DNA from: Candidatus Magasanikiibacteriota bacterium | Lineage (GTDB): Bacteria; Patescibacteriota; Patescibacteriia; Magasanikbacterales; GWA2-37-8 | DNA: 63,560 nt | Assembly (NCBI GenBank): GCA_041678665.1 | Contig: JBAYNU010000005.1 | Location: 1-63,560 of the forward strand | Direction: 5' to 3' | Part shown: one piece after another, positions 38,789 through 60,989 of the stretch | Layout of the letters: every line of letters begins with the position of its first letter | Position numbering within the stretch: the stretch's first letter is position 1 | The notes under the pieces: generated by a model | Databases searched by the model: none | Seen by the model: the letters and a program-made list of their open reading frames with translations, nothing else | Told to the model about the DNA's origin: nothing | Position numbers and translations under genes: made by a program

Positions 38789-38809
38789 ATGGATAATTGG
38801 AAAAAAACT

Positions 38810-39511: not shown

Positions 39512-39535
39512 GTTCTTGAATTAATTGGTTATCGC

Positions 39536-40633
39536 CTACGAAAACAATCTCTTGTCTTTATAAAACGGTTTTTGAGTTTTATCTTCGTGGGTAAATACTT
39601 CCGAGCAAGGAACGGGCAGGGGCTTGTCATAAATCCTTCCAGCCACATATTTTTCAATAAAATGTCGATCTTCCGCTATCGAACAAGTATCAACATATTC
39701 ACCAAAATACTTAATGTCAAAGCCTCTTTTTATAATATCTTTAAGTGGCTCTTTGAATACATTGCCAATGGAAGTATGAATGTAAGGACAGGGAAGCACA
39801 TCTCCATATTGCGTGACGGAAAACATTCCCTTCACCGCGATACAACCCATATTAATTCCGTAAGCCGAGGTCAAATGGGTAAAAACTTTATATTTCTTTT
39901 CTAATTTTTCCATATACGCCATATCCTTTCTGTCAATCAAACAATCAAAATTTCCCTCCCATGCTCCGACTGGCTTGGCATAGCTCACAAAAACGCCAAT
40001 GCCTTTATTGGTAAAATATTCCAGATACTTAATAAATTCGTCCGAATAAAGTCTCTCTTTCCAAACTACCGTCTGCATAAAAATATCCATCCCAATCTCC
40101 TGGGCAATATCCACGGCCTTCAGCACTCGGGCATGCGATCCGGGAGACCTTCTAAACGCATCGTGCTCTTTAGCATTTAAACTATCCAGACTAACCTGCA
40201 CTCTATCCACACCAATGTCTTGCAAATGTCTCATCCTTTTTTCGTCCAGTAGCCAGCCGTTAGAATCGCTGTTGATATAAAATTTCTGCGGGTCAATAGC
40301 CGCCACTAATTCGTCAAAATCCTTAAATACCATCGGTTCGCCGCCGGTAATAGTCACCCGCGCTAATCCCAACTCATCAGCTTGTTTAAATAAATTTTTA
40401 ACATCAGGGATAGTGAATTGACGGGTTTTGTTGGGGCCTTGAAACCGTTTAACCGAGCAGTGGACACATCGAAAGTTACAGGTGTAATTATATTGAAACT
40501 GAATAATAGCGATGCTTTCACCCCTTCTAATCTTTTCATCAAACTTGGCAATCTTTTCAAAAACATAGGGCTTCCTCTCTTTAAGCCGATTACGATTGGT
40601 GGCCTCGACCGATTTTAATTTTTGATCTGACAT
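39536..40633 (-). CDS. Radical SAM enzyme with a SPASM/twitch-like C-terminal Cys cluster
   Basis: CNFRCVHC (CX3CX2C), ITGGEP, C-terminal GCIA...LPCPY...C. Confidence 0.85.
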   Translation of the reverse strand: MSDQKLKSVEATNRNRLKERKPYVFEKIAKFDEKIRRGESIAIIQFQYNYTCNFRCVHCSVKRFQGPNKTRQFTIPDVKNLFKQADELGLARVTITGGEPMVFKDFDELVAAIDPQKFYINSDSNGWLLDEKRMRHLQDIGVDRVQVSLDSLNAKEHDAFRRSPGSHARVLKAVDIAQEIGMDIFMQTVVWKERLYSDEFIKYLEYFTNKGIGVFVSYAKPVGAWEGNFDCLIDRKDMAYMEKLEKKYKVFTHLTSAYGINMGCIAVKGMFSVTQYGDVLPCPYIHTSIGNVFKEPLKDIIKRGFDIKYFGEYVDTCSIAEDRHFIEKYVAGRIYDKPLPVPCSEVFTHEDKTQKPFYKDKRLFS

Positions 40634-42446: not shown

Positions 42447-43892
42447 TTAAAAAAGACTGTTAAATTTAACAATGAAAGGATTGAAAAAAAAGGTCAAATC
42501 TTCTTTCTTTAATAACCGTAACCAAAATAACAGACCAACATTAATTAAACAAAGAGCGAAACCAATAAAATAGTTATTTGACTGTCCTATATATTTTAAT
42601 ATTAATAATAACAACGCATTAAACACGCCCAAAAATACCATGCGATAAATGATAGACCAATTTTTCTCCCATTGAGCATAGCGTTGCAATAAAAACAGGT
42701 TGGCTACTTCCGCTATGACCGTAGCCCATGCCGCACCATATAACGAATATCTAGGAATAAGAATAAAATTTAGTCCAATATTGAAAATTGCGCCAAAAAT
42801 TATAATATACAAACTGCGATGCTCCCGGTGCTGGATCACCAGCAAACTATTAAATAACATGCTAATCGAACCAATAATCTGCGCTAAAATTAAAATCCTT
42901 ATCGCCAAAACACTGGGCATAAATGAATCGGGAAAGAGCCAACTTACCAATAGCGGCGTAAAAAAAATAAATCCGAGAGTAATCATTAAACTAAAAGAAA
43001 ATAATAAACGAGTGGCTTTATAAAAAAAACTAATAAATTTAACGCGCGACCCCGAGTCATTCCATAGTGATGACAAAATTGGGAAAATTGATGGCATAAA
43101 TAAAACGGCCGGAAAAATAGCGGCTACTTCTAAAAATTTATAAGCCGTTCCATACCAACCTACGACGGAAAAATTATCTAAATAACGCAGCATTACAATA
43201 TCTATCCGATTGTATAAACTAATAAAGAGGGTGATAAACAAAAATGGCATCCCTTTTTTGATCATTGATAAGATGTTGTGAATGTTAAAAATTAATTTAA
43301 ACTTAAAAGGCAATACTCTGTAAAAATAATAAGCTAAAGAAACTAACTGGCTTAACAATAGAGCTACAAACACCGTCTCCACGTGCGGATAAAAAAATAA
43401 TCCTACCGAGCCAATTATAATTACCACCATTTTTTCAATCAGCTGGCGAAGCGACGGGTATTTAAATAAATTGGCCGATTGAAAGTAAGTATCGGCCAAA
43501 TTAATATAAGTGGCAAAAAAAGTAGAAACGAACGCAATTATTAATGGCAACAAAATATTAAAATTGGAAAAAAAATTAACCAAAAAGAACGGAATAAAAA
43601 TAATAACCACGGTTATTAGCCGCAAAGTAAAAAGCGCAAAAAAGTCTCCTTCTACCTGATCAAATGTTTTGGGGCTCTTCGCCCACTCACGATACAGATG
43701 GCTACCTGCACCAAAATCAAGAAAAATAAACCACATTCCCACGAACGATGAAATAAAATTATACTGCCCCATACCAATGTCTCCTAAAATATGCGACATG
43801 AGGACAAAAAAAGCCAATCCCAAAATTCGCAAGAAAAATTGAGAAAAGGTGGACCAAGCAAAATTTGTACCAGCTTGTAATTCGTGATCCAT
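42447..43892 (-). CDS. wzx: Wzx-type (MOP superfamily) polysaccharide flippase
   Basis: 481 aa with about 12-14 hydrophobic helices and typical polysaccharide-biosynthesis-protein layout. Confidence 0.72.
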   Translation of the reverse strand: MDHELQAGTNFAWSTFSQFFLRILGLAFFVLMSHILGDIGMGQYNFISSFVGMWFIFLDFGAGSHLYREWAKSPKTFDQVEGDFFALFTLRLITVVIIFIPFFLVNFFSNFNILLPLIIAFVSTFFATYINLADTYFQSANLFKYPSLRQLIEKMVVIIIGSVGLFFYPHVETVFVALLLSQLVSLAYYFYRVLPFKFKLIFNIHNILSMIKKGMPFLFITLFISLYNRIDIVMLRYLDNFSVVGWYGTAYKFLEVAAIFPAVLFMPSIFPILSSLWNDSGSRVKFISFFYKATRLLFSFSLMITLGFIFFTPLLVSWLFPDSFMPSVLAIRILILAQIIGSISMLFNSLLVIQHREHRSLYIIIFGAIFNIGLNFILIPRYSLYGAAWATVIAEVANLFLLQRYAQWEKNWSIIYRMVFLGVFNALLLLILKYIGQSNNYFIGFALCLINVGLLFWLRLLKKEDLTFFFNPFIVKFNSLF

Positions 43893-44317: not shown

Positions 44318-45274
44318 CTAAGACGGTAAATTTTTTAAAAACCACTCATAGGCTGACTGCAAACCATCTTTCAAATTAATCTTCGGTTTCCAGCCCAGAG
44401 CATTTACCGCCGAACTATCCATGAGCCTACCGGGGGTACCGTCTGGCTTGGAAGTGTCCCATTCGACAACCCCTTCATAACCAACAACCGACTGAATCAG
44501 CTCGGCTAATTTTTTTATAGTGAGATCCGAGCCAACTCCTAAATTTACAAAAATTTCTCCTGTTTCATTTTGTTGTTTGGTGGGGTTGAAATTGTTCATC
44601 AGAAAAACGCAACCATCGGCCATGTCATCGGAGCATAAAAATTCACGACGCGGATTGCCTGTCCCCCATAATTTTACGCTTGGTTCGTGATTAATTTTGG
44701 CTTCATGAAACTTTCTAATCATTGCCGGAATAACATGAGACTTTTGTAAATCAAAGTTATCATACGGGCCATAGAGGTTGGTAGGCATTACCGCGATAAA
44801 GTTAGTACCATACTGGCGATTGTAACTTTGACACATCTTTATTCCAGTAATTTTAGCTAAAGCATATGGCTCGTTGGTCGATTCTAACTTACCGCTTAAT
44901 AAATATTCTTCTTTTACTGGTTCGGAGGCAAATTTAGGATAGATACAAACCGATCCTAAAAATAACAACTTCTTAATACCATTTAAATATGACTGATGGA
45001 TAATATTACATTCAATCTGTAAATTTTCGTAAATAAATTGTGCCGGATAAGTATTGTTGGCACCAATGCCGCCAACTTTGGCAGCAGCCAAAAATACATA
45101 CTCCGGTTTTTCTTTAACAAAAAAATCGGCAACTGCTTGCTGGTTGAGCAGGTCGAGTTCGGCATGAGCACGCGTAATTATATTGCCATAACCTGCTGAT
45201 TCAAGTCGGCGCATAATAGCGGAGCCAACTAAACCACGGTGACCAGCAACATAAATTTTGGATGTTTTGTCCAT
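44318..45274 (-). CDS. fcl: GDP-L-fucose synthase
   Basis: KIYVAGHRGLVGSAI, YALAKI, 318 aa, downstream of gmd. Confidence 0.92.
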   Translation of the reverse strand: MDKTSKIYVAGHRGLVGSAIMRRLESAGYGNIITRAHAELDLLNQQAVADFFVKEKPEYVFLAAAKVGGIGANNTYPAQFIYENLQIECNIIHQSYLNGIKKLLFLGSVCIYPKFASEPVKEEYLLSGKLESTNEPYALAKITGIKMCQSYNRQYGTNFIAVMPTNLYGPYDNFDLQKSHVIPAMIRKFHEAKINHEPSVKLWGTGNPRREFLCSDDMADGCVFLMNNFNPTKQQNETGEIFVNLGVGSDLTIKKLAELIQSVVGYEGVVEWDTSKPDGTPGRLMDSSAVNALGWKPKINLKDGLQSAYEWFLKNLPS

Positions 45275-45347: not shown

Positions 45348-46403
45348 TTACGTGAGATAATCGCTTGCTTTTAATCCTCTTTCTTCAAACTCCGCCGCCA
45401 TCATTAAGCGCACCAAATCTTTAAATTTTATTTTTGGCTCCCAGCCAAATTTGGCTTTGGCTTTGGAGTAATCCCCAAGCAAATGATCCACTTCGGTGGG
45501 GCGATAATAATAAGGATCAATTTCAATCAAAACTTTGCCAGTCTTTGAATCAACGCCTTTTTCTTTTGCCCCATCCCCTTCCCATTTGATGTTATAGCCT
45601 ACCACACGCGCAGATTCTTCTACAAATTCTCGCACACTATGAGTTTCGCCAGTAGCAATCACATAATCATCGGCGTTTTCTTGCTGAAGCATCATCCAGA
45701 TTGCCTCCACATATTCTTTAGCATAACCCCAATCTCTTTTTGAATCTAAGTTGCCAAGATAAACCTTATCCTGTTTTCCTAATTTTATTTTAGCAAACGC
45801 GGCGGTTAATTTTTTAGTTACAAAAGTACCACCACGACGTGGTGATTCGTGATTAAATAATATTCCATTACAAATAAACATGCCATAAGCTTCGCGGTAA
45901 TTTACGCACAAATAATGCGAATAAACTTTGGCGCAACCGTAAGGAGAACGTGGATAAAACGACGTGGTTTCTTTCTGCGGATTTTCCAAAACCCGACCAA
46001 ACATTTCTGATGATCCGGCCTGATAAAATTTAACTTTGACGCCACTATTTCGAATAGCATCGAGTAGACGCAAAGTACCTAATCCATCCACATTGCCAGT
46101 ATACTCTGGTAATTCAAAGCTGGTGCGAACATGGCTTTGTGCCCCTAAATTATAAATTTCATCGGGTTTAATATTTTCTATTAAACGATTCAAATTACTA
46201 CCATCGGTTAAATCGCCATAATGTAAAAATAACTTACGATCCAAATCATGGGGGTCCTGATAAATATGATCAATGCGACCAGTATTAAAACTACTGCTGC
46301 GACGAATAATGCCATGCACTTGATATCTTTTTTCTAATAATAACTCGGCGAGATACGACCCATCTTGACCAGTAATACCGGTAATTAATGCCTTTTTGGT
46401 CAT
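45348..46403 (-). CDS. gmd: GDP-mannose 4,6-dehydratase
   Basis: [31 protein letters not shown], 351 aa. Confidence 0.95.
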
Positions 46404-46404
46404 A

Positions 46405-48507
46405 TTATTTTTCCTTATTATTAGTTTCTAAAACAGGCGTGGATTTGATTTGTCCAATAATTTGCTGCTCTTGTTCGGTAAACATCACGTTATTTTTTTG
46501 AGCCAAAGATAATATCTCATCCATTTTTTGAGGTTGATTTAAAAATCTATACGCATAAGCTAAACGCCAATAACTTTCACCAATTTTGGGATTATCAGCA
46601 ATCGCCTGCTCTAATAATTTTATAGACTCGGAAGTTTGGCCAACTTGCATATCTAAACTAGACAAACTGTAAATAATTTGCTGGCGACGAGGCGATTTGA
46701 CTAACGCATCTTCCATCATTGTCTTGGCATCAAATATATATTCAGAATTATTGGTAATCATAGAACCCGTCTGTCCTAATTGGGACAAAGTGATTTGGTT
46801 GCGAATATCCAATGGATGCAATACTAAATTCTTTCGCAACTCCGGATATACAATATTAAAAATCTCTAAACTGCGATCTTTACCTAACTTTTCATAGGAA
46901 CCAGAAAGTAATTGAGCGACAGTGCGCCCAATATCTGCCCGAATATCATCAATATGGGGAGATCGAAAACTTAAAGCGGTTTTTATGTATGGCACGCCTA
47001 ACACTGGATCTTGGGATATATAGCGAATAGCATCTAACGTCATCATGTTAGCGCGTGCCGGCTGAATATTAAAAATAAAAATTAATAAACAAGCTACCAT
47101 GCCAACACTCGCCACAAAACCATTACTGATATTTTTGTCCACGGCCTGAATCCCCGCCTTCGTCTGTCTGCCAGTAGGCATGGCGAGGATGACAAACTTA
47201 GATCCTTCGCTACGCTCAGGATGACAGAAGCTGGACAAAGAATTCACCAGCGCCAACCAAAACATAAAATATAAATATGAGGTGGGATTTTCAAACACGG
47301 TAACATTGCCTACTAAATGCGCCACCAAAAACGCACTACCAATTACCACTATATGAATATTTAATTGACTATTTTTCCAAGCCAATACCAAAACGGCTAT
47401 TCCGACCGTAAACATACCCAAATAAATTATTATTCCGAAGGCTCCCTGCACAGCGAGCGTATTTACTATAATATTATGCGCGTTGTCAAACCATGTTTCA
47501 CCATAGCCGAAATTCAAAGACTTAGGGTTATAATGCGTATTAAAGGCGTAAAAATAATTATTCGGCCCCCAGCCAAAAATCGGTTTGTCTTTCCAGCTCT
47601 GAATGGCAATTTGCCAAGCAACCCAACGCGGGCTAGCTTGAAGATCGGTAAATGAAGTATTAATAGTACGACCAATGGCTGGTAAATTGATAACAAAATC
47701 AGTTTTTCTAAAGACGTAGAGTAAAGAGATAAAAATAATACCAAAAACCGCCAAACCAATAAGTGACCGACGAGTTTTTTTGTATTCTTTTAAAACAATT
47801 ATATACCCAATAATCGCCGTACTAATTCCGGCCACTAATCCCAACATGGAACCACGGGTACCACTGTAAAACAAGCCCAAAATAGATAAAATCGCTAAAC
47901 CAGCTAACACCCAACGCCACACTGGGTTATTTTCGCGAATAAATAAAAGATAAGACACAAAAGTAAGAAATAATCCATATCCACCCACATAAATAGCATT
48001 ACCAAGAGTACTCGCAACGCGTCCACTACCTTGATTTAACAACAGATCTGGATTTACCCATGCTTGTAACACCCCAATAAACATCACCACCGATCCACCA
48101 ATCAAAAACATCCTTAACGCCCACTTCCAATCATTCCAATTTTTAAAAACCGCCGTACAAATAAAATAATACGCCCCAAAATGTAAAATAGTAAACAACC
48201 CAAGCATGCGTTCGTGGTTATCCCAAAAACTATGATAAGGATCAACCCCGACAAAAGTAGAAATGGCAAAACTCAACAAAAAAGCGCCGACCGCCAGATT
48301 GAGCGCGGTTAAACGTGGACGATATTCCTGCCAATTGATTATTAAAAGCAACACATAAGCGCCTAGCATTATTTCAACAAGCGAACGAAACGCCAGAATT
48401 TTGGGAACAATGAAAGGAAAAATAAACGAAGACGGAAGCACAATTAATGGAACAAAAAAAGTGGCATAAATTAAACCTTTAATTAGAAGCTCAAGTTTGC
48501 GTTTCAT
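46405..48507 (-). CDS. O-antigen ligase/polymerase-like (Wzy_C) membrane protein fused to a C-terminal TPR domain; carries an in-frame double palindromic-element insertion
   Basis: [11 protein letters not shown] and [17 protein letters not shown] are typical of Wzy_C. C-terminal [19 protein letters not shown] is TPR-like. Start set to MKRKLELL (48507). Confidence 0.75.
47149..47226. repeat. Two adjacent REP/MITE-like modules inside the CDS (AATCCCCGC...GGATGACA and GATCCTTCGCTACGCTCAGGATGACA)
   Basis: Module 1 at 47149-47194 resembles 54703-54746. Module 2 at 47201-47226 resembles 53045-53079. Translated in-frame as [27 protein letters not shown]. Confidence 0.85.
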
Positions 48508-48567
48508 ACAATTTACAATGCTAATATTATAAAAATGCCAAAATGAATTCAGCACGACAATGCTAAT

Positions 48568-48596
48568 ATTGTAGCGAAAACGAAGTAAAGTGTCAA
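48568..48596 (-). promoter_or_regulatory. Sigma70-like promoter upstream of the ligase-TPR/gmd/fcl unit
   Basis: Minus strand reads TTGACA, 17 nt, TACAAT. A 14-nt direct repeat acaatgctaatatt (48515-48528 and 48557-48570) overlaps the -10. Confidence 0.5.
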
Positions 48597-48598
48597 AC

Positions 48599-51500
48599 TC
48601 AAATAGGCAAGTCAAACCCAATCCACCCCGGCCAATCAATCAGCTTATCCACATTTACAAAAGAGTCTCCGGACATATTATAAAGATGTAGCGTGGCGCC
48701 GGAATTTCCAAGCAAACCGCCATAAATATTTTGAATACTAACACTATCAAGATTTAACTCTCCCCCAATCATTTTGACCCCAAAAGTGGGAATATATTGA
48801 TTGTAATACTTCTCGTCATCTTTAATCTCGCAATTAGTCATGCTAATGGTGGAATTGTTGCCTTGCACCGTATAAAGCGGTCGCCGAGGATTAAGTAGAT
48901 TAACATTCATCATCTCTAAATTAGAATCTTTAGCCAAAATCATGCCATTATCACCACCGCCCGGTTGTGATGTCGGCCTGGAATTACCTTTTTCCAAATT
49001 AACATAACGTAAAGTGGATGACGAACCATCAAAACTCAATTGATTCCATTTTTGATCGTCGTAAAAAGGACTGAAAGAAATTGGATTTTCCGCTTCTCCT
49101 CTGGCCGTTAAAACACCATTAATATCCCAACTGGATTGGGAAGTCATTTTTATCTCCGCTCCGGGATCAATATATAATGTAGAAGATGGAGAAACGAAAA
49201 TGTAAGAAAATATTGATTTGTCTGCCATTTCTTTGGTAATGGTATACTCCGGTTGCGACAGGACAGTTGAATCAATATAGGCTCTATCCACGGTATTGTT
49301 GGAAAAACTTAAATTTGAAAATTTAGGTAAAATATCAGCAATAAGAATAGCGCCGCGACAGCAAGCATCAGGCGAATTAATAAAATCAGAAAAACTGCTA
49401 TCACTAATATCTACCGCGCTTTTATAAGACTCAAAACCACGTTCACCGCCTTTCATTGTAGCTGACCGCACGGTGGTAGTGGTGTTTTTAACATAAATCA
49501 TGGTGCCTAGATTATTACTAAACACCGAATTGCTGATTGATAAAACAGCCTCATCAGCCCGAATCGGCTGACTAACATAGGGCGTCCAAGTACCGGCTCC
49601 CGGCGGACGAAAAAGATGCCCGGCGTAGCGCATTTCTAAATTACTAATATTTCCAGTACTACCGGCATAAAATTGAATACCTTGCCAATCACCGGCAAAG
49701 GCGGTGGAAGTGCTCCATGTGCCTACAATGGTATTATAACTTGACTGATCAAACGACTGATCATACCCAGAAGTAAGAATTACCGGACGAGCACCTGATC
49801 CATTGATTTCCAAATCGCCATTAATCTTGAATGCGGAGGAATAATAAGCATTCTTAACCACTACCCCCTCTTCAATAATAAGTTTTTTGCCAACCGGAAC
49901 AGTATAGCCTCCTAATATATAAGGATTATTGCTGGGATTCAAAACATAAGTTTCTGCCGCCTGATTACCGCGCAACACAATAAACCCATAATTAGGCTGA
50001 CGAGGAGAAGCATTGAGATAAGCGCTATGATTGCGACCAAGCATACGCAATCCCAAGCTCGAATGCCAATTGGAAGCATCACTGCCTCTTTGATCGGCAC
50101 CATTTCTTTCCATGCTACGAAAACTGCTATCATCTCCGGCAAACCAACCGGACGAAGATGAACAGTCAACTTCGTCAACTTTTTCTCCTTGCGGATTAAA
50201 TAACGCTATTTTTTCACCGGCATTGTTGAATCCGTATTGCAAAGTATAAATAATATCGCCGGTAATTTCTTGCACACTGTCGTCATCGGTCCTTTCCAAA
50301 AGATAATAACCATGCGCCGGAATAACACCATTATTAATCTTGCTCCATTTAATCGTTCGATCCCCGACCGTCACCCGCCAACTACTGCTAGCGCTGGTAG
50401 TGGCCAATATAATATCCTCGTTGGTATTATTATACAATTCCAACCATTCATCATCGGCATAACCCGCCGCCCCCGCCCAAGCCACCTCGTTGATTACTAT
50501 TTCCTTACTCCAATCAATATATGATAAGGTGGACGAAGCAGTTTCGTCACTCCAGGCAGAAGTATTACCCAACCCATCACGCGCGCGAGCCCGAAAATAA
50601 TATCCGGACCCCCGCTCTCCGGATAAACTAAACTCGGTAGTAGTGGTGTTAATGGCAATTTCTTGCCAAGCGCTGGAAGAATTAATATCTAAACGATAAA
50701 ACAAATCAAAATAAGTTAACGGCGACAACTCGTCAATGCTGGACAAATTAATAGACAATTCGGTTGAACCAACATCATTAGAGACAACAACACTAGGCAC
50801 CGGGGGTGAATCATTATCCAAAACTAAATGCGCCGGGAGAGATTGGGTAGAAGTAACACCGTCAATATCAACTGCGACAAAATAAAAATAATTATGACCG
50901 GAGTTAAGCACTGGTTCGTATTCAAAGAGACTAGACGAAGCAATAAAAAATTCCGCTATCGGACTGGAAGAAGCATCTACAATAATTTTAACGGTATCGC
51001 TAGAACAAGTACCGGTGATTAACCAATCGGATGAAGTGGTATAAATAACTTCTTTAAATTGCTCATCTAAAACCGGCATAGCCAGCACGCTAACGGTCGA
51101 AGTGGTAGTGGTAGAAACATTACCCTGTTCATCCCATCCTCCACCTGACGATGGTAACGACGCGCTACTTCCGCCTCCGCCATAATAAGGAACAATGACA
51201 GTAGAAGATGTGGCAACCGGCGGTGTTGTGGTTGGTAACAAAATCGGCTCCTTAATTATATCTGGCACAACTCTAGTGGTGGGTATCGCTATGGGATTAG
51301 AGGAAGGAATGGCTGTGGCGAAAGATGAATCGTTTCCACCATAGGCGACGACAGGCGGGAGAGGTGGGGTCGCCGAATTAATTTCACCTGCTCCTTGCCC
51401 TTGCGCCGTTTGACCAAGAGTGGTCATAGTGGTATCCACCTGACGCAAAATATTAGCGGTAAAATCACTGGGTGATGAACCAAATAATTTTTCCGCGCCG

Positions 51501-52447
51501 GTAACCAGATAGCCCCAAACAGTATTAACTACTCCATCCAAATTAATTTTTAGCGCTGATAAATTTTGTTTTTCGTTTTTAGCCGCTTCGCGAAAAAACA
51601 AATCAATCAATCCAGCGCTATTGGATATGGCGGCAGAGACGAGGCGGGTGGAATAAGAAAATAAAATAGCATTTAAATTTACTGTTACACTATTATTATC
51701 TTGCCATGCTATATCCTCAATAGCAAAAACTAGTCTGTTAATATTGTCCACTTTAATTATATACTTATGCCCATTTGAAACCAATCGATTACCATTTTTG
51801 GTGCTAATAATTTGATAATACTTACTCTCAATCGTATCATCGCTATAGAAGTTCCCATTAGAATACTTGGCCAAATTATAAAAAGCAGAATTCAGATCGC
51901 TAATGTTTTGAAATGAATATTCTAAATTAGGCGATATCTTTTTCCAATTGTCTTTTACATACTGCTCCAAAGAATCTCCGGCCGGATGAATATCGTTACG
52001 AGTGTGAGCCGGCACAGCCATGTCACTAAGTAAATGAATGGCATGGCCCAAGGCAACCATGGCGTTTTTCCGATCACCCTTTTGGTAATAATCCAAAGCT
52101 CTTTGCCAACTTTGGTCGCCCAACGAATATTTTATCTGTAAAATTGGACCGGTAACCCAACTGATTGTGGTTGGGTATTGCGCGCCAAACCAAATACCGC
52201 GATTATAAACCGGATCATAAAAATGATTGTACCATCTCGTGGGAACATCCTCTTCGGACGCGCCTTTTTTAATACAATTAATATCTTCCACGCTTAATTG
52301 AACATCTTTAATAGCTCGATCAAATTCCCTGGCAGCCAATTCGGCAATACTAGGATGAGCGATATTAGTATCAAAACAAAAAGCCCGGGCAGGCAATAAA
52401 ACCCCAACCGAGCAAAATAATATTAATAAAGTTACCCTCCAATTCAT
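48599..52447 (-). CDS. 1282-aa secreted mosaic protein: Zn-phospholipase-C-like N-domain, Pro/Thr-rich linker, FN3-like domain, lamin-tail-like domain, beta-helix-like C-terminal region
   Basis: Signal peptide MNWRVTLLILFCSVGVLLPARA. HAIHLLSDMAVPAHTRND. YYFRARARDGLGNTSAWS. VINEVAWAGAAGYADDEWLELYNNT. Repetitive Asn/Ser/Gly-rich C-terminal third. Confidence 0.75.
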   Translation of the reverse strand: MNWRVTLLILFCSVGVLLPARAFCFDTNIAHPSIAELAAREFDRAIKDVQLSVEDINCIKKGASEEDVPTRWYNHFYDPVYNRGIWFGAQYPTTISWVTGPILQIKYSLGDQSWQRALDYYQKGDRKNAMVALGHAIHLLSDMAVPAHTRNDIHPAGDSLEQYVKDNWKKISPNLEYSFQNISDLNSAFYNLAKYSNGNFYSDDTIESKYYQIISTKNGNRLVSNGHKYIIKVDNINRLVFAIEDIAWQDNNSVTVNLNAILFSYSTRLVSAAISNSAGLIDLFFREAAKNEKQNLSALKINLDGVVNTVWGYLVTGAEKLFGSSPSDFTANILRQVDTTMTTLGQTAQGQGAGEINSATPPLPPVVAYGGNDSSFATAIPSSNPIAIPTTRVVPDIIKEPILLPTTTPPVATSSTVIVPYYGGGGSSASLPSSGGGWDEQGNVSTTTTSTVSVLAMPVLDEQFKEVIYTTSSDWLITGTCSSDTVKIIVDASSSPIAEFFIASSSLFEYEPVLNSGHNYFYFVAVDIDGVTSTQSLPAHLVLDNDSPPVPSVVVSNDVGSTELSINLSSIDELSPLTYFDLFYRLDINSSSAWQEIAINTTTTEFSLSGERGSGYYFRARARDGLGNTSAWSDETASSTLSYIDWSKEIVINEVAWAGAAGYADDEWLELYNNTNEDIILATTSASSSWRVTVGDRTIKWSKINNGVIPAHGYYLLERTDDDSVQEITGDIIYTLQYGFNNAGEKIALFNPQGEKVDEVDCSSSSGWFAGDDSSFRSMERNGADQRGSDASNWHSSLGLRMLGRNHSAYLNASPRQPNYGFIVLRGNQAAETYVLNPSNNPYILGGYTVPVGKKLIIEEGVVVKNAYYSSAFKINGDLEINGSGARPVILTSGYDQSFDQSSYNTIVGTWSTSTAFAGDWQGIQFYAGSTGNISNLEMRYAGHLFRPPGAGTWTPYVSQPIRADEAVLSISNSVFSNNLGTMIYVKNTTTTVRSATMKGGERGFESYKSAVDISDSSFSDFINSPDACCRGAILIADILPKFSNLSFSNNTVDRAYIDSTVLSQPEYTITKEMADKSIFSYIFVSPSSTLYIDPGAEIKMTSQSSWDINGVLTARGEAENPISFSPFYDDQKWNQLSFDGSSSTLRYVNLEKGNSRPTSQPGGGDNGMILAKDSNLEMMNVNLLNPRRPLYTVQGNNSTISMTNCEIKDDEKYYNQYIPTFGVKMIGGELNLDSVSIQNIYGGLLGNSGATLHLYNMSGDSFVNVDKLIDWPGWIGFDLPI

Positions 52448-52489: not shown

Positions 52490-53008
52490 CTACAACGACT
52501 CAATATACCAAATACCATCAGATACCTTTACAAAAGTCATAAATCCGGCATTTTTTTCTCCACTCTTTGAAGTCCCATCAAAAATATATGTCGCCTTATT
52601 CTCCGACTTAAAATCAGGGTCGATTTTAGTTATATCACTTATCATCAAATCCAACATTCCCTTTTCTTTCACGCCATTCAAAAACTCCTTTTGCTTCGCC
52701 CTATCCCCTTCTCTAAAACAACAATTCACCGCCGCGTCAAAATCGCCTTTTTTAAGCGCGGCTAGAAATAGCGCGTGAGTTTGCTCGGGGGTTTGTTTGT
52801 CGGCTACGCCACTATAATCAATATATTGCGGATACATTTTATTTAGTTCGGCTTGATTATAATTACGATACGGAAATTTGGGATTGGCCAGGCCCATTTG
52901 AACGCGTTCTTGTTTTTGAGTGAACCAACCAATGGAAATTAAAAATAATAAAAAAAGAACGATAATACCGACGACTACCGTTCCCCAAAACCAAACTTTC
53001 TTGGTCAT
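52490..53008 (-). CDS. Membrane-anchored hypothetical protein
   Basis: 172 aa with one N-terminal helix and a small soluble domain. No recognised motif. Confidence 0.55.
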   Translation of the reverse strand: MTKKVWFWGTVVVGIIVLFLLFLISIGWFTQKQERVQMGLANPKFPYRNYNQAELNKMYPQYIDYSGVADKQTPEQTHALFLAALKKGDFDAAVNCCFREGDRAKQKEFLNGVKEKGMLDLMISDITKIDPDFKSENKATYIFDGTSKSGEKNAGFMTFVKVSDGIWYIESL

Positions 53009-53204: not shown

Positions 53205-53279
53205 CCCACCTTTGGCGGGAATGACAACGAAACATAAAGAGATCCTTCGACTCAGCCTTCGACTTCACTCAGGATGACA
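53205..53279. repeat. Two REP/MITE-like modules downstream of apt
   Basis: cccacctttggcgggaatgaca (53205-53226) and gatccttcgactcagccttcgacttcactcaggatgaca (53241-53279). Confidence 0.85.
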
Positions 53280-53293
53280 AGTGCTAGTGCTCC

Positions 53294-53827
53294 TTATTCC
53301 CCTTCAAACTCAACCAGAGCGAAGGATTTGTGGCCGGCGGATTCGAGTTTTTTCTTGCCACCTAATTCCGGAAGGTCTACCACAAAGCAACATTCTGCTA
53401 CTTGCCCGCCGGCTTTTTTAATCAAATTGCAGGCAGCCAAAGCTGTGCCACCGGTGGCGATGAGATCGTCCACGAGTAAAACTTTTTCGCCGGGCAGAAG
53501 CGCGTCCAAATGTATTTCAATTTTGTCCTTGCCGTATTCCAATTCGTATTCTTCGCTAATGGTCGCGGCCGGGAGTTTACCTTTCTTGCGAATTGGCACA
53601 AAACCCAAACCCAACCGATCGGCTAAAGGCGAGCCGATGATAAACCCGCGGGATTCAATGCCGACAATTTTGTCTATCTTAAAATTTTTATAACGCTCTT
53701 GCAGTAAATCCAGCATGCGCTTGAAACCGACTGCATCTTGCAGAAGGGTGGTAATGTCTCTAAACATTATCCCCTGCTTAGGCCAGTGCGGCACGGTGCG
53801 AATTTTTTGTTTGAGAATGTGAGGCAT
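53294..53827 (-). CDS. apt: Adenine phosphoribosyltransferase
   Basis: WPKQGIMFRDITTLLQD, VLLVDDLIATGGTA. Start set to MPHILKQ (53827), because the ORF-track extension is translated from a palindromic element. Confidence 0.92.
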   Translation of the reverse strand: MPHILKQKIRTVPHWPKQGIMFRDITTLLQDAVGFKRMLDLLQERYKNFKIDKIVGIESRGFIIGSPLADRLGLGFVPIRKKGKLPAATISEEYELEYGKDKIEIHLDALLPGEKVLLVDDLIATGGTALAACNLIKKAGGQVAECCFVVDLPELGGKKKLESAGHKSFALVEFEGE

Positions 53828-53849
53828 ACGAAAGGAATAAAGAGTAACT

Positions 53850-53915
53850 GTCATCCCCGTGAAAACGGGGATCCGCCCCGTCAAGTCGCTGATTCCCGCT
53901 TTCGCGGGAATGACA
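53850..53915. repeat. Two inverted short palindromic elements between mtnP and apt
   Basis: gtcatccccgtgaaaacggggatcc (53850-53874) and gattcccgctttcgcgggaatgaca (53891-53915). Confidence 0.85.
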
Positions 53916-53918
53916 ATG

Positions 53919-54668
53919 TTACTTTAACCTCTCAATCGCATGAATTAACAAATTCGTAACATTGTGCGCGTTTTTATTGAAAATCTCCATCACCGCTTCC
54001 CAAGATACCGGCGCTTCGTCTTCTTTCCAGCAATCATAATCGGTAGACATTGCTACAGCAACATACGGAATGCCGGCTTCGTTGGCAAGCGATGCTTCGG
54101 GCGCGATTGACATATTAATCACATCCGCTCCCCAAGCGCGAAACATTTTGCTTTCGGCTTTGGTAGAAAATCTGGGGCCTTCAATAGTAACAACCGTCCC
54201 CCGCTCATGATGAGTTAAATTTAATTCTTTACAACCATCAATAAAAATTTGGCGTAAAATTTTATCAAACGGCTCCGCCATGGGAGTGTGCTTCATTTGC
54301 CCCGGTTCAAAACTTTCGTAAAAAGTGGAAAAACGATGGCGAGTGAAATCTATAAACTGATCAAGTATCACCAAATGCCCGCGCCCAATTTCTTCGCGCA
54401 AAGAACCAACGGCGGTGGTGGCGAGAATATGCGTGCAACCAACTTCTTTGAGCGCTTGAATGTTGGCGCGAAAATTTACCTGCGTGGGTGGAATAGTGTG
54501 TTCGCGCCCATGGCGAGCAATCAAAACCACCTCCACGCCTTTGATAGTGCCACATTTTAAAAACGAAGATGGCGCGCCATAGGGGGTTTTCGCCTCCATG
54601 TCGTGGGAATTTTCTAAAATTTTGGGGTCGTCTAGACCGGACCCGCCGATGATGCCGATTTTGAGCAT
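53919..54668 (-). CDS. mtnP: S-methyl-5'-thioadenosine phosphorylase / purine nucleoside phosphorylase family
   Basis: MLKIGIIGGSGL, 249 aa, MTAP-like sequence throughout. Confidence 0.85.
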   Translation of the reverse strand: MLKIGIIGGSGLDDPKILENSHDMEAKTPYGAPSSFLKCGTIKGVEVVLIARHGREHTIPPTQVNFRANIQALKEVGCTHILATTAVGSLREEIGRGHLVILDQFIDFTRHRFSTFYESFEPGQMKHTPMAEPFDKILRQIFIDGCKELNLTHHERGTVVTIEGPRFSTKAESKMFRAWGADVINMSIAPEASLANEAGIPYVAVAMSTDYDCWKEDEAPVSWEAVMEIFNKNAHNVTNLLIHAIERLK

Positions 54669-54879: not shown

Positions 54880-57800
54880 TTAGCTACGAGCAGTTACTGA
54901 CTCAAGTGATGGGGTACCGCTGGTATATAAACCAGTATTGACATAGCTATCATCGATAGCACCAGAGACATTACCATCATAGCCGAGATTAGTATCCTTC
55001 ACTTCATACAAGATATCGCCCAAAGCGCCAACTGACAACTGGAAATAGTCATAATTGACAGCCGTGCCGCTAGTCTTGACTGTGAAGTATCTCCAAGAAT
55101 TACCACCGATAGTTACAGGGGTGGTTAACGTGCCAAAGGCAGTTGTATTCGCAAGAGTACTGGACGCAGTGCCGCCAGTAACATCGGTTTGCGAACCACC
55201 ATCAACAGAATACTTCAAATCATACTTCAATGTAGAAGTGGAAGCTCCGCCATTGGCTAAACTAAACTTAGTAATAGCAACTTCGGCATTGCCAAGATTG
55301 GTTACCTTGAATACACCAACATTGGCACCAGTGCTAAGACCAACAGTAGCCGCAGCAGTCGGAGAAACTCCTTCTACTTTAACTGTAAACGGCACGATAT
55401 AACTGTGACCGGAAACAGCCGGAAGACCGGTTACGGTAGCGAGAGATGCAGTACCTTGACCATACACCTTGAAATCGGTGGTGGAGGAGGCAATGCTAAA
55501 GGCAAAGCTATCACCTAATTTGGCTTGACCGGCTCCGCCGATGTCGGCCTTGACATAAATGGTTACCGGGCTGCCAGGTTGAACTGCCTCCGGCAATAAA
55601 TTGTCGGTAGCGGTCCAAGTAACATAGCAATCGGTAGAACCATCACATGTCATTTCACTTTGCGAAGCGAACGGCGTGGTCTCGCTGTTACGATACAAAC
55701 GGACATTGACGACATTATTGGTCTTACTAAACGCGGTACCAGTGGCGGTCAACTTAAGAGTGCGCAATTTGATCGCTTCGTTGGACGGAGTGATCTTGAA
55801 GGCAAAATAAGTGCCATCATTAGTGCCAAGTTGTACCACTTGATTAGTGCTCGGCGAAGCGCCGGCGCCAGAAACAAGCGACAATACAACCGTCGGACCA
55901 GAAGTCAAAGTCATGGCCTGACCATCACCGGACGGGGTTACAGACACAGTAGTGCCAGTATCCTTACCAGTAGCGGAAACACTATGCAAGCGGAAGATGT
56001 GGGTCAAAGAAGTACCTGACACAACATCAGCTTTTAGAGTGAGAGTCTTGGTCGCACCTTTCGCGATCATCAACGGAGTGCTGAAAGTAAAGGTGGTAGA
56101 AGCCGAATTGGTGGCAGTACTATTGCTGGTGGTCAATTGATTAGTACCATCATACAACACTAAATTCGCCACATGGGTCCAAACAGAGCTATCGGTACCA
56201 GTATCGGAGATTACCAATGAGGATATTCTTACTTCTTCACCCGAGGTATTGGCACTCAACTCAATATTGGCAAATGTAAATCCGGTAGTCCCAGCAACTA
56301 TGCTCTGGGCCATCGGGGTGGTCAATGTCTTAGCAGACAATGAAGCCGCATTCACCGAAATTTGATTGCCATCAGCTGGGACAACAGTAGGATCGGCAAT
56401 GGCATTGCTAAGAATCTTGCGTACTTCCGTCACATCCATATCGTTAACTGTATAAGATACACCCGAAGTAGCAGTGGAAGGAACATTGCCTTCAACAGTA
56501 ATATAGGTGACCTGGTTAGCAGTTAATAATGGATAAGAATTCAAGGCAAATGAACCAACGGCGGTTCCAGCCGCGGTAAAACCGCTGGCCGCACCACTCC
56601 AAACATTCGCGCCATTAACTTTAATATACACGTTACCAGTCAAAGCGCTGTCAACTTGCACAATGCCTAAATTGACTTTGCGTAATTCCATGTCCTCACC
56701 AATAGCTTTGACATAATACTTGGCCAAAACCACATTAGTGGCTCCTGGAGCAACTGCATTAGACGGAGAACTGGCATCCTTGTTGAAACTTAAGGTGCCA
56801 GTACCAATGGTTACTTTGTTCCAAGTAGTAGTGCTATCACCGTCGCCCACCGGGAAAGCGGTATCATTGCTACCATAAGTAGATAATACATACGCACCAG
56901 TGGTAGCGCCCTTCACAGCCAAATCATAGTCGTTGTAAATAACGAACTGAATATATTTGGAAGTGCCAGCACCGCTCACAATTTTAGCGCGGACAGTGAG
57001 ATCTTTGTATTGACCTTTGTCAATCTTATATGGATTGGCGGAAAGATCAAAAATTACATATTGACTGACCGGCTGAGCAGTGGCAAGCACTGTTCCATCG
57101 GTAGCCACAAGTTGAACATCTCTATAATCAGCATCAGCAGCGCTGCCAAGGTTGAAAAGAGTCAATTTGATTAATTTCAAATCTTCTTGGCTACCTGTTT
57201 CGCTGATACGAAATTTGGTAATTTCTTGTTCATTGTCGGAATCGGCATTTAAAGTAGTACCACTGGCACCGCTAACCGCCATAACATCAACTGAAGCAGA
57301 GGCCACAGCGCTAGCGCCATTCACTACATTAAACTCATTGCCATATACTGGCAAACCACCAATAGTGGCGGCAGTTGAATCAACAGCGCCTACACCCATC
57401 TTGATTGTTCCGCCATCAGCAGAGGCGCTAACATTGACGCGTACTGTCAAAGTGACAGAACCGCCGGCCGGCACAATTACCGGATTGGAACCGAATAGAA
57501 CAATAACTTGATTATCAGAATTGACGGAAGAAACCATGTTTCCATGGCGGACATCATTGCCATCAACTATATCAATACCGGTAAGATAGGTATTGCTGAT
57601 ATAACCACCTTTATTAAGAGTCAAACCATTAACAGTCACAGCTTCTGGTCCGGCAGCTAAAGTTATCTTTAACACCGGATTGAAAGAAGTACCATCAGGA
57701 ATGTTCACAGCAGCCGGAGTTGCCGCAGACAAAGCTACGGTCAAGGCACCATTAGTTGCAGTGCCAGTGCCACCAGCCACACCACTCTGTGAGCGATCGC

Positions 57801-58521
57801 CCAAAGTGGTGGTGTAAGCAGTTACCGCAGCCGCAGTTCCAGCAGCCGGCAATAAAGCGGCGTCAAGAGTGCGGACATATTCGGCCTTCACGCGGTTGGC
57901 AGTTAAACCTTCCGCAGTGATTTGAGTCAAAGTTTTGTCAGTATTGACGAAATAAGTTAATCCGTCCTTCTTGACAAACATGCCCGGATGGGCTTTGGCT
58001 TCGGTCCAATCAACCAAAGAATCAACCATGGCGCCAAATTCCATATTGGTAATAGTGGCGGTCTTGTAGTTGGTTCCATAAAGTTGCTTGGCAACTTCAT
58101 CGGTTAATTTATAAGCAACACGACCCAAACCAACAGCGTAGATGCTACCAGTGATCGGATGCTTAATAAGAGTAGAACCTGGGCGATAACCTACGTATTG
58201 TGGAGAAGAACCAAGCTTCTCGATACAATCGTAAGAAACGGTCTTAAAGGAATAGCTTTCATCGGCATTCCAAGTCTTGTAGCCACTATAATAAGTGGTG
58301 CCAACTTTGGTGTTGTTAATGAAAGATGAAACCTTTAAATTGTTGTCCAAAACATAGATAGTCGGAGATGAGGCAGTTTTGACCATGTCGCCAGCAACCA
58401 AACCAGCAATGCAAGCTTCTTCAGCTTGAGCGACGGTAGGTACAAGAGCCGCAACGCCGAGAGACCACATGATAGTAGTCGCTACTACGCTGAACGTAAA
58501 TACCTTTTTAATTAAGTTCAT
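54880..58521 (-). CDS. 1213-aa secreted Thr/Ala/Gly/Val/Ser-rich repetitive surface (S-layer-like) protein
   Basis: Signal peptide MNLIKKVFTFSVVATTIMWSLGVAALVPTVAQA. Recurring module endings such as DLTVRAKIVSGAGTSKYIQFVI, TLTLKADVVSGTSLTHIFRL and VTIYVKADIGGAGQAKLGDSFAFSI. Strong dedicated terminator. Confidence 0.78.
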   Translation of the reverse strand: MNLIKKVFTFSVVATTIMWSLGVAALVPTVAQAEEACIAGLVAGDMVKTASSPTIYVLDNNLKVSSFINNTKVGTTYYSGYKTWNADESYSFKTVSYDCIEKLGSSPQYVGYRPGSTLIKHPITGSIYAVGLGRVAYKLTDEVAKQLYGTNYKTATITNMEFGAMVDSLVDWTEAKAHPGMFVKKDGLTYFVNTDKTLTQITAEGLTANRVKAEYVRTLDAALLPAAGTAAAVTAYTTTLGDRSQSGVAGGTGTATNGALTVALSAATPAAVNIPDGTSFNPVLKITLAAGPEAVTVNGLTLNKGGYISNTYLTGIDIVDGNDVRHGNMVSSVNSDNQVIVLFGSNPVIVPAGGSVTLTVRVNVSASADGGTIKMGVGAVDSTAATIGGLPVYGNEFNVVNGASAVASASVDVMAVSGASGTTLNADSDNEQEITKFRISETGSQEDLKLIKLTLFNLGSAADADYRDVQLVATDGTVLATAQPVSQYVIFDLSANPYKIDKGQYKDLTVRAKIVSGAGTSKYIQFVIYNDYDLAVKGATTGAYVLSTYGSNDTAFPVGDGDSTTTWNKVTIGTGTLSFNKDASSPSNAVAPGATNVVLAKYYVKAIGEDMELRKVNLGIVQVDSALTGNVYIKVNGANVWSGAASGFTAAGTAVGSFALNSYPLLTANQVTYITVEGNVPSTATSGVSYTVNDMDVTEVRKILSNAIADPTVVPADGNQISVNAASLSAKTLTTPMAQSIVAGTTGFTFANIELSANTSGEEVRISSLVISDTGTDSSVWTHVANLVLYDGTNQLTTSNSTATNSASTTFTFSTPLMIAKGATKTLTLKADVVSGTSLTHIFRLHSVSATGKDTGTTVSVTPSGDGQAMTLTSGPTVVLSLVSGAGASPSTNQVVQLGTNDGTYFAFKITPSNEAIKLRTLKLTATGTAFSKTNNVVNVRLYRNSETTPFASQSEMTCDGSTDCYVTWTATDNLLPEAVQPGSPVTIYVKADIGGAGQAKLGDSFAFSIASSTTDFKVYGQGTASLATVTGLPAVSGHSYIVPFTVKVEGVSPTAAATVGLSTGANVGVFKVTNLGNAEVAITKFSLANGGASTSTLKYDLKYSVDGGSQTDVTGGTASSTLANTTAFGTLTTPVTIGGNSWRYFTVKTSGTAVNYDYFQLSVGALGDILYEVKDTNLGYDGNVSGAIDDSYVNTGLYTSGTPSLESVTARS

Positions 58522-58720
58522 AATATTATTTAATCTCTAACCGCTTGCGCGCCCGCCGGTAAGGCGGGGTCAAACGAGTTAAAGTCGCTCGCGTTTTTGC
58601 GCGTATAGCTATGACGCGCAATGCACGCGACACAAAGCTCCAGCGAGTCACTATGGACCCTCGACTTTTGCTTGGAACTGTTATAAACTAATTTTTCCCT
58701 CTCTCGAATTGTCTGCCTTT
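58522..58720 (-). promoter_or_regulatory. Long, locally G+C-rich, hairpin-dense 5' leader of the S-layer-like gene
   Basis: Minus strand contains tgcgcgt-catagctat-acgcgca, cccgcc-ttacc-ggcggg and other GC stems. There is no ORF. Confidence 0.4.
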
Positions 58721-58786
58721 GTCATTCTCGCGAAAGCGGGAATCCGCGACTTATTAGAGCAGGTCCCCGTTTGCACGGGGATGACA
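58721..58786. repeat. Two short palindromic elements between the anti-sigma-like gene and the S-layer leader
   Basis: gtcattctcgcgaaagcgggaatcc (58721-58745) and ggtccccgtttgcacggggatgaca (58762-58786). Confidence 0.85.
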
Positions 58787-58806
58787 GGCAATTCAAGAAA
58801 GACAAA

Positions 58807-60153: not shown

Positions 60154-60694
60154 CTAATATTTCTTTTAATTTTTTTATCGCTCGATGAATTGTTACCCTA
60201 GTCGCTATTCCACCTTTACCAATAATCTCGGCAATCTCATCGACATCCAACTCATCCACATAGCGCAAGGTCAAAACTTCTTGATACTCTTGTTTCAATT
60301 TTTTCAACGCGCTAATTATTTGCGCCGCGTCCGCATTGCGATTCAAATCTTCATACCACTTTCCTCCATCACTCAATTCTATCTCTTCGGTAATTATCAC
60401 CTGCGGTTGAGTTGATCGACGGCGATATAAATCTATAATCGCGTTACGAGCTAAGCGGTAAAGCAAACCGCTAAAACTTTTTATTTCTTTGGTATTTTCA
60501 CCAATCACATAGTTCCATGTTTTCAAAAAAACTTCAGAGGTAATGTCTTCGGCTTCTTCTTTTCCGGATACTTTAAAATAAACGAACCGATAGATTCGTT
60601 TAACATACAGATCGTAGAGCTCGGTAAATGCTTCCGGGTCGTGTTTAGTTTGCAGTCGGTATAGAAGCAGTTTTTCTTTAATAGAGCCTGACAT
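60146..60694 (-). CDS. ECF-type sigma-70 family RNA polymerase sigma factor
   Basis: 182 aa. Region 2 (ITSEVFLKTW..) and region 4 HTH (LTLRYVDELDVDEIAEIIGKGGIATRVTIHRAIKKL). Confidence 0.85.
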   Translation of the reverse strand: MSGSIKEKLLLYRLQTKHDPEAFTELYDLYVKRIYRFVYFKVSGKEEAEDITSEVFLKTWNYVIGENTKEIKSFSGLLYRLARNAIIDLYRRRSTQPQVIITEEIELSDGGKWYEDLNRNADAAQIISALKKLKQEYQEVLTLRYVDELDVDEIAEIIGKGGIATRVTIHRAIKKLKEILGG

Positions 60695-60948: not shown

Positions 60949-60989
60949 TTTAAATAAAAAATTTTGGCTTAAATTAAGGATTTTAGTCT

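Follow-up and report, generated by a model that had tools for sequence, protein, structure and literature searches.

The closest described counterparts of the enzyme reported here come from S-layer glycosylation systems. WsfB of Paenibacillus alvei, the predicted S-layer O-oligosaccharyltransferase (O-OTase) of the slg cluster, combines a Wzy_C region with a C-terminal TPR motif, and in Geobacillus stearothermophilus the TPR protein WsaA is encoded just upstream of the predicted S-layer O-OTase WsaB (PMC2943079). Genes for O-OTases of the PglL type are often adjacent to those of their targets, and three residues each are functionally important in PglL (R224, R298 and H349) and in the Escherichia coli ligase WaaL (R215, R288 and H338) (PMC3643930). 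Here we describe a Wzy_C-TPR membrane protein, for brevity called the ligase, which is encoded by a member of Candidatus Magasanikbacteria (Patescibacteria, or Candidate Phyla Radiation, CPR) on a stretch of 63,560 nt that is referred to as the window (contig JBAYNU010000005.1 of assembly GCA_041678665.1, forward strand, positions 1 to 63,560). Patescibacteria are tiny, mostly uncultured bacteria that are thought to live attached to other cells. We propose, at what we judge to be about an even chance, that the ligase may be a protein O-OTase which acts like WsaB and WsfB and finds its main acceptor in an S-layer-like protein of 1213 aa encoded in the same window. The architecture of the enzyme and the principle behind S-layer O-glycosylation have precedents; new are the CPR setting and the very large size of the family.

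The ligase gene and the parts of its product are arranged as follows:

46405-48507, minus strand: Wzy_C-TPR gene (ligase), 700 aa, a membrane protein of the WaaL/PglL superfamily with an extra, thirteenth transmembrane helix (TM13) and a C-terminal TPR-like domain
47230-48507, minus strand: residues 1-426, the Wzy_C/WaaL-like core with 12 helices and a large external loop at residues 266-345
47125-47229, minus strand: residues 427-461, a disordered, Lys/Arg-rich linker, probably cytoplasmic
46405-47124, minus strand: residues 462-700, TM13 and the TPR-like domain of about ten helices, extracytoplasmic by prediction

The open reading frame (ORF) as listed extends from a TTG at 48639 (46405-48639, minus strand), but because all close homologues begin with MKxxLE the true start is the ATG at 48507, which gives the 700 residues. 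The first-pass annotation of this DNA had described the product as a Wzy_C protein with a C-terminal TPR domain, and both halves of this description hold. Pfam Wzy_C (PF04932) matches residues 204-363 with an E-value of 2.4e-21 and 76.5 bits, as compared to a cut-off of 31.7. More than 690 homologues of the same length share 46-77% identity with the ligase, and the family counts 8,285 representative clusters when E<=1e-3 is required, and 2,020 with E<=1e-30; the close homologues are from CPR genomes. A single-sequence search of the PDB gave only weak TPR and chance matches, so that family profiles were needed. The profile of the N-terminal 430 residues matches WaaL (7TPG) with E 1.3e-8 (37.5 bits) and the oligosaccharyltransferase 9RMK (610 residues) with E 3.9e-7 (32.6 bits), and the AlphaFold2 model of the ligase (predicted local distance difference test, pLDDT, 86; predicted template modeling score, pTM, 0.86) has WaaL 7TPG as its top PDB match in Foldseek (E 8e-6, template modeling score, TM-score, 0.68 over the target). 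The residue numbering of 9RMK agrees with that of Neisseria meningitidis PglL (PMC3643930). In the profile alignments R218, R294 and H344 of the ligase fall on R224, R298 and H349 of 9RMK/PglL and on the corresponding motifs of WaaL, with the GTRG, R-x-x-x-W and AHN motifs of 7TPG lining up, and these three residues, together with R100, W298 and D341, are invariant in 71 close and 36 distant (25-45% identity) homologues. By fold and by the invariant Arg/Arg/His trio the ligase thus belongs to the Wzy_C WaaL/PglL superfamily.

The TPR-like domain is real despite its sub-threshold Pfam score (TPR_8, E 0.007, in the ligase itself). Most of the 120 homologues listed carry precomputed TPR families such as PF14559 and PF13181, and a profile of 71 homologues matches consensus TPR proteins and the TPR regions of OGT and SPINDLY with E-values from 1e-8 to 1e-24. 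In the AlphaFold2 model about ten paired helices, residues 501-689, superpose on MamA at a TM-score of 0.70 (Foldseek), and the TPR region of OGT is matched as well. The domain contains strongly conserved polar motifs (SPHIDDIR, LHPxDIRN, SPxRQQ and ExYWR), which suggests that it may bind one fixed ligand and would not be a generic interaction module.

The linker that joins the two halves is variable in the alignment, and its residues 428-452 are modeled with a pLDDT below 50. It carries an in-frame copy of a GC-rich repeat reading CHPERSEGS, and the homologues P0003 and P0008 have similar peptides at this place. Short GC-rich hairpin repeats of this kind (TGTCATCC...GGGAT type) lie at 47150-47230, within the ligase gene, and in intergenic gaps at 53210-53290, 53848-53927 and 58719-58787. 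An origin of the Wzy_C-TPR fusion by repeat insertion was considered and rejected, as all full-length homologues keep the fusion, TM13 and the TPR domain whether they have the repeat or not.

With respect to the membrane, the model orders nine helices, the large loop (residues 266-345), three further helices, the disordered linker and the thirteenth helix, which spans residues 462-499 and runs into the TPR-like domain. About 17 Lys and Arg residues are found in the N-terminus, the even-numbered loops and the linker, as opposed to two or three in the odd-numbered short loops. From this helix count and the positive-inside rule we infer that the catalytic loop and the TPR-like domain lie on the same side of the membrane, outside the cytoplasm.

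The comparative set consists of 80 related genome loci. Downstream variability was counted in those 55 loci in which 8 kb or more follow the ligase orthologue, with genes of at least 40% identity taken as one family, and upstream synteny in the 59 loci with at least 6 kb upstream. In the window the ligase heads a glycan cluster, and judging by the downstream genes it does likewise in the 55 loci. The cluster of the window and its far flank contain:

45348-46403, minus strand: gmd, directly downstream of the ligase gene (GDP_Man_Dehyd, E 4.5e-151)
44318-45274, minus strand: GDP-fucose-synthase-like epimerase/reductase (Epimerase, E 1.5e-62)
42447-43892, minus strand: Wzx-type (MOP) flippase (Polysacc_synt, E 1.2e-24; NCBIfam Wzx_EPS, E 4e-12, well below the cut-off)
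7995-42472, minus strand: remaining glycan genes, some 35 kb encoding sugar-nucleotide enzymes and glycosyltransferases (assigned by Pfam and hydropathy)
3046-7103, minus strand: gpsA and the genes of a penicillin-binding protein (PBP) and a Mur ligase, bounding the cluster on the side away from the ligase

The Wzx-dependent glycan operon that had been noted next to the ligase in the first pass is therefore present, with the flippase gene and some 35 kb of sugar genes. Across the 55 loci the ligase orthologues share a median identity of 51% and a minimum of 41%, while 70% of the locus pairs have no gene family in common in the 8 kb downstream; the 457 downstream genes fall into 229 families, 160 of which occur in a single locus. 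Representatives of these families are overwhelmingly sugar-nucleotide epimerases and dehydratases, methyltransferases, glycosyltransferases of the GT1, GT2 and GT4 families and Wzx flippases, and gmd is the first downstream gene family in 16 loci and present in 25. A conserved enzyme followed by a hypervariable cassette is more easily reconciled with a ligase or oligosaccharyltransferase that tolerates various donors than with a polymerase bound to one repeat unit. Polymerases are specific for their repeat unit and usually diverge along with the glycan cluster, a contrast that we draw from general knowledge of Wzy, WaaL and PglL.

But which molecule would receive the glycan? Upstream of the ligase, the conserved partner is the 1213-aa S-layer-like protein rather than a giant secreted protein of 1282 aa whose gene is the immediate neighbor in the window. 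The S-layer-like protein is the last member of a triad:

60146-60694, minus strand: ECF-type (extracytoplasmic function) sigma-70 factor (Sigma70_r2, Sigma70_r4_2), heading the sigma / DUF5667 / surface-protein triad
58807-60153, minus strand: DUF5667 protein with a single transmembrane segment (PF18915, E 3e-10), a presumed anti-sigma factor; start codon uncertain
54880-58521, minus strand: S-layer-like surface protein, 1213 aa, with a signal-like N-terminus; candidate acceptor

A homologue of the 1213-aa protein is encoded upstream of the ligase on the same strand in 32 of the 59 loci, within 400 nt of it in about 14, and is usually preceded by an ECF sigma factor and a DUF5667 protein, whose genes are syntenic in 28 and 33 loci, respectively; the DUF5667 gene is also found in the distant CPR loci L084-L086. 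In 13 loci the S-layer-like gene is directly followed by the gene of another full-length Wzy_C-TPR protein, a paralogue of about 750 aa and 25-30% identity that precedes the orthologue and is often accompanied by a stand-alone TPR protein of 234 aa:

L026:7781-9994, L034:6371-8650 and L034:8662-9366: examples of the second Wzy_C-TPR paralogue and the stand-alone TPR protein, with 11 further loci

The two Wzy_C-TPR copies hint at transferases with different acceptors or donors. In the Jorgensenbacteria locus L083 the gene order is a PG_binding-type surface protein, a Wzy_C protein (31% identical to the core), a small ORF with a transmembrane segment and TPR repeats, and glycan genes, and hence the same arrangement exists in a second CPR lineage. 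The Wzy_C protein (457 aa) and the TPR protein (187 aa) are separate ORFs here (L083:13937-17365), with a gene of the 23S_rRNA_IVP family between them and an AbiEii gene between the surface-protein gene and Wzy_C. That the small ORF is an orthologous, split-off version of the TPR domain of the ligase was rejected for lack of significant BLAST similarity; the arrangement is analogous.

The surface protein itself was called a Thr/Ser-rich, S-layer-like protein in the first pass, and its composition agrees with this: behind the signal-like N-terminus it contains 22.7% Ser plus Thr, as compared to a window average of 12.1%, and its charge is low. It has no Pfam or NCBIfam match and no SLH domain of its own, but its residues 258-1212 are 44% identical to the Peregrinibacteria protein P0286, the N-terminus of which consists of three SLH domains. 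Other CPR relatives carry PG_binding_1 in place of SLH, as confirmed for P0284 and P0287 and indicated by precomputed Pfam for P0285. To judge from these sequences, a swappable wall-anchor module ahead of a conserved body is the classic architecture of an S-layer or surface-array protein. The AlphaFold2 model (pLDDT 84.6) consists of an N-terminal alpha/beta module of about 220 aa and some eight beta-sandwich domains, for which Foldseek returned only generic multi-Ig arrays (alpha-2-macroglobulin, integrins, PrgB; TM-scores of at most 0.21) and no specific S-layer match. Between the ECF sigma gene and a divergent gene for a 122-aa helix-turn-helix protein (61127-61495, plus strand; 66-83% identical across related loci) lie three copies of the palindrome TTTGTATACACTAGTGTATACAAA (60918-61105), which resemble a set of operator sites for the control of the sigma / anti-sigma / surface-protein unit.

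Taken together, these data lead us to suggest the following mechanism. The enzymes of the downstream cluster would assemble a glycan linked to lipid pyrophosphate, and Wzx would flip it. The ligase would be located in the cytoplasmic membrane, the cell having no outer one, would expose both its catalytic loop and its TPR-like domain on the outer face, and would transfer the glycan en bloc to an acceptor other than lipopolysaccharide (LPS). The likeliest acceptors would be secreted surface proteins, above all the 1213-aa protein, with the TPR domain holding the acceptor polypeptide near the active site; the Ser/Thr/Pro-rich linker of the giant protein would be at most an additional substrate. 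Of this scheme, the family, the fold, the conservation of the catalytic residues, the contrast of a conserved enzyme with hypervariable glycan genes, and the synteny are what the data show, whereas the topology and the activity as a ligase and not a polymerase are predicted. A protein acceptor we infer because the S-layer-like gene recurs directly before the ligase and because WsfB and WsaA/WsaB set a precedent. The choice of the S-layer-like protein as main acceptor is the weakest step of the mechanism. Glycosylation of surface proteins had been put forward in the first pass, and what speaks for that part of it is the superfamily, the predicted outward orientation of the TPR domain, the CPR host, the position of the ligase at the head of the cluster and the WsfB precedent; the emphasis placed there on the giant protein is not supported in the form given.

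A ligation to lipid A-core of the WaaL type was considered and rejected. The envelope of CPR bacteria is reported to be Gram-positive-like and to have no outer membrane (PMC6744442), and no Lpx, Lpt or Waa core gene was found among the window ORFs scanned, in accordance with the earlier remark that LPS machinery is not evident in this window.

Several observations weigh against a protein O-OTase that serves the S-layer-like protein. Sequence and fold can neither separate an O-OTase from a ligase or a polymerase nor name the acceptor, and with the N-terminal profile WaaL and PglL score about equally (37.5 versus 32.6 bits). The PglL_A motif (PF15864), by which PglL is told apart from WaaL, was not detected in the ligase at E<=0.01 in a Pfam scan; PilO likewise does without it (PMC3643930), and the motif is thus not universal among O-OTases. 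In the window the S-layer-like gene is 6.4 kb away from the ligase and appears to be transcribed separately, and the alignment of the surface proteins contains no invariant Ser, Thr or Tyr. Moreover, in 27 of the 59 loci the genes that were sampled upstream encode housekeeping proteins instead of a surface protein, and in three distant CPR loci the sigma / DUF5667 / surface-protein triad occurs with no Wzy_C gene within 8 kb. Beyond Magasanikbacteria only L083 supports the link between surface protein and Wzy_C; the contig with the Peregrinibacteria SLH homologue breaks off about 1 kb away and gives no information on synteny. Among sequencing runs, only two DNA metagenome runs (landfill and groundwater) and no RNA run contain the window sequence. 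Finally, TPR domains also serve polysaccharide export scaffolds, and a separate Wzy polymerase was not identified in the window, so that the ligase could be the polymerase itself.

The last two points lead to the first of the alternatives, which we regard as unlikely, namely that the gene product is a Wzy-type polymerase of a Wzx/Wzy-dependent surface polysaccharide (a capsule or a secondary cell-wall polymer), with the TPR domain as a scaffold or chain-handling device and another enzyme attaching the polymer to the wall. Wzy_C in Pfam includes ligases and polymerases alike, a survey of cyanobacteria places Wzy and WaaL in one class (PMC4594306), a Wzx gene is located 2.5 kb downstream, and the window shows no other obvious Wzy gene. 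Against a polymerase stands the finding that the enzyme remains 41-77% identical while 70% of the locus pairs share no downstream glycan family. In addition, the window ORFs gave no match to the chain-length regulator Wzz/GNVR or to an LCP ligase, and neither of the two is found when the 25 most frequent Pfam families are taken from 131 representatives of the downstream gene families. By fold the ligase WaaL is the closest match, the catalytic trio is that of ligases and O-OTases, and for glycan steps outside the membrane the cluster offers other candidates, a polytopic protein of 900 aa and a GT87 enzyme.

Equally improbable in our estimate, the ligase may act on a non-protein acceptor, such as peptidoglycan, a membrane lipid anchor (yielding a lipoglycan) or another wall polymer, which the TPR domain would bind. 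WaaL, with which the ligase shares fold and catalytic residues, has a glycolipid as its acceptor. The family is very large (the 2,020 representative clusters mentioned above), the frequent lack of an adjoining surface-protein gene would fit a universal envelope component, and the strongly conserved polar motifs of the C-terminal domain are as expected for one fixed ligand. Furthermore, gpsA and the PBP and Mur-ligase genes are close to the ligase in L006, L036, L038 and L060, and the same genes flank the cluster here. This explanation is at odds with the recurrent position of the ligase directly after the S-layer-like gene and with the precedent of WsfB and WsaA/WsaB. LCP enzymes are the ones that ligate glycans to peptidoglycan or to Gram-positive lipid anchors, and no characterized Wzy_C enzyme is known to do so.

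The third alternative concerns the giant protein, which the first-pass annotation had stressed as a partner of the ligase. The features involved are:

48599-52447, minus strand: giant secreted protein, 1282 aa, with a signal-like N-terminus; an optional neighbor of the ligase
48508-48598, minus strand: the 91-nt gap between the ligase and the giant gene, with a promoter-like site and a duplicated AATATTAGCATTGT motif
52490-53008, minus strand: 172-aa protein with one transmembrane segment and no Pfam or NCBIfam match

With the ligase starting at the ATG at 48507 and the upstream stop codon at 48599, the distance of 91 nt given in the first pass is correct. The gap contains TTGACA-17-TACAAT (48596-48568), which agrees with the sigma-70-like consensus in 11 of 12 positions, a consensus match only, and the ligase and the glycan genes therefore need not be co-transcribed with the giant gene. 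The giant protein is composed of an N-terminal region resembling Zn-PLC/P1 nuclease (Zn_dep_PLPC, weak, E 0.06), a Ser/Thr/Pro-rich linker, an FN3-like segment, an LTD domain (E 7e-11) and a right-handed beta-helix (Beta_helix, E 4e-5). It has relatives in a family of modular LTD proteins, of which some contain PF00882 or thermonuclease (SNase) domains, and the protein looks like a secreted hydrolase or adhesin; it may be a nuclease or lipase that is secreted for scavenging from hosts. It had been described as secreted and as having long Ser/Thr/Pro-rich stretches. The signal-like N-terminus agrees with the former, whereas the latter is overstated: Ser plus Thr amount to 18.4%, as compared to the window average of 12.1%, only residues ~377-420 contain 50% Ser/Thr/Pro in 40-aa windows, and the low-complexity linker as delimited by eye covers about 100 aa (about residues 365-465). 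A homologue of the 172-aa protein accompanies the giant protein in six of the eight loci that have the latter (tblastn) and, by ORF-level blastp, in a seventh, L038. That the ligase is an O-OTase dedicated to the giant protein and glycosylates its linker is very unlikely, since, for all that the giant gene is directly upstream on the same strand here and in every one of the eight loci, and that the linker resembles the low-complexity regions modified by PglL (PMC3643930), it is present in just these eight of the 59 loci, all of which have the ligase, a promoter-like site lies between the two genes, and its domains suggest a secreted hydrolase or adhesin of a modular family; it would be at most one of several substrates.

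The remainder of the window adds to the picture of the cluster and its surroundings. All genes from 60694 down to 3046 are on the minus strand. Besides nucleotidyltransferases and other enzymes of nucleoside diphosphate sugars, the region 7995-42472 encodes two radical-SAM/SPASM proteins, a NeuB-cupin protein, a thiamine pyrophosphate (TPP) enzyme, an aminotransferase, five GT2 and further GT4/GT1-type glycosyltransferases, one GT87 (GT-C) enzyme and the 900-aa polytopic protein. An initiating phosphoglycosyltransferase was not found in the window. At 29746-40633 (minus strand) the two radical-SAM/SPASM enzymes, the NeuB-cupin fusion and the TPP-dependent enzyme are found with a NUDIX protein and an AAA-type kinase-like protein, a set that points to unusual, heavily modified sugars. 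The 900-aa protein (22617-25319, minus strand) adjoins GT2 genes. About 13 transmembrane helices are predicted for it, with both terminal regions outside the cytoplasm, and it is matched by neither Pfam nor NCBIfam; it may be a glycosyltransferase of the GT-C kind or the polymerase that was not otherwise identified. NCBIfam gave no informative family for this protein, the ligase, the giant protein or the S-layer-like protein. In L006, L036, L038 and L060 the gpsA / PBP / Mur-ligase block is immediately upstream of the ligase or of the pair formed by the 172-aa and giant genes. Because this block is at the far end of the cluster here and upstream of the ligase in these four relatives, the glycan cassette appears to be inserted at a recurring spot beside cell-wall genes. 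Two genes lie between those of the 172-aa and the S-layer-like protein:

53919-54668, minus strand: mtap, between the 1213-aa gene and aprt
within 53294-53884, minus strand: aprt, start uncertain

Both mtap and the S-layer-like gene are enclosed by a 69-nt inverted pair whose halves are 86% complementary. At the other end of the window two identical 40-nt copies containing a hairpin (117-156 and 2245-2284) flank the only plus-strand gene there (279-2144), the 621-aa product of which matches no family. The copies may represent a terminator that was duplicated, or else mark the place where a gene was inserted.

If the ligase is indeed a protein O-OTase acting on the S-layer-like protein, how far might this extend? 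It is possible, if doubtful, that the whole CPR-wide Wzy_C-TM13-TPR family (about 2,000 clusters at 50% identity, E<=1e-30) would represent a general enzyme for the O-glycosylation of surface (S-layer) proteins in Patescibacteria, promiscuous for its donor and served by hypervariable cassettes. The CPR surface is where these cells meet their hosts and phages. Our literature searches turned up no paper that treats O-antigen ligases together with the Candidate Phyla Radiation, and nothing relevant on a CPR O-antigen ligase or on CPR protein glycosylation. Should the proposal hold, it would identify the first CPR glycoprotein system along with its likely S-layer gene. Each lineage would then display a different sugar coat on the same protein scaffold, which would explain how close CPR lineages diversify their surfaces, and this coat might decide how the bacteria attach to host cells and evade phages. 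If the ligase is donor-tolerant, glyco-engineering could make use of it as an O-linking transferase. If one of the alternatives is right, the locus is an ordinary surface-polysaccharide cluster.

Among known systems, OGT and SPINDLY are TPR-bearing protein glycosyltransferases. In these enzymes, too, a catalytic domain is combined with a TPR superhelix that presents the protein substrate, and the family profile matches their TPR regions at E ~1e-8; TMTC-type GT-C enzymes are a further example of protein glycosyltransferases that bear TPR repeats. The catalytic folds and the donors of all three are unrelated to those of the ligase, however, and the similarity is generic and confined to the repeats. 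WaaL of Cupriavidus metallidurans (7TPG) is the best match both in structure and by profile. It differs in having 12 transmembrane helices, no TM13 and no TPR domain, and a CPR cell that has no outer membrane would not be expected to contain lipid A-core, the acceptor of WaaL. PglL of N. meningitidis (9RMK) shares the Wzy_C core and the aligned catalytic trio, and the variability of the glycan clusters implies for the ligase a relaxed donor specificity like that of PglL; by profile the two match weakly (E 3.9e-7) and over the core only, the ligase has no PF15864 match, and PglL works in the periplasm of a diderm.

The ligase has most in common with WsfB and WsaB as these are described in the literature: in each case a cell that lacks an outer membrane encodes a Wzy_C membrane protein together with glycan genes. 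The glycan of G. stearothermophilus is exported by the ABC transporter Wzm/Wzt, whereas the cluster described here has Wzx (PMC2943079). The 1213-aa protein, moreover, has no SLH domain itself, although some of its relatives do, and its glycosylation is a prediction. In the known systems the TPR unit is either fused to the enzyme, as in WsfB, or encoded by a separate small ORF, as with WsaA, and both arrangements are found here as well, the fused one in Magasanikbacteria and the split or stand-alone one in L083 and L034.

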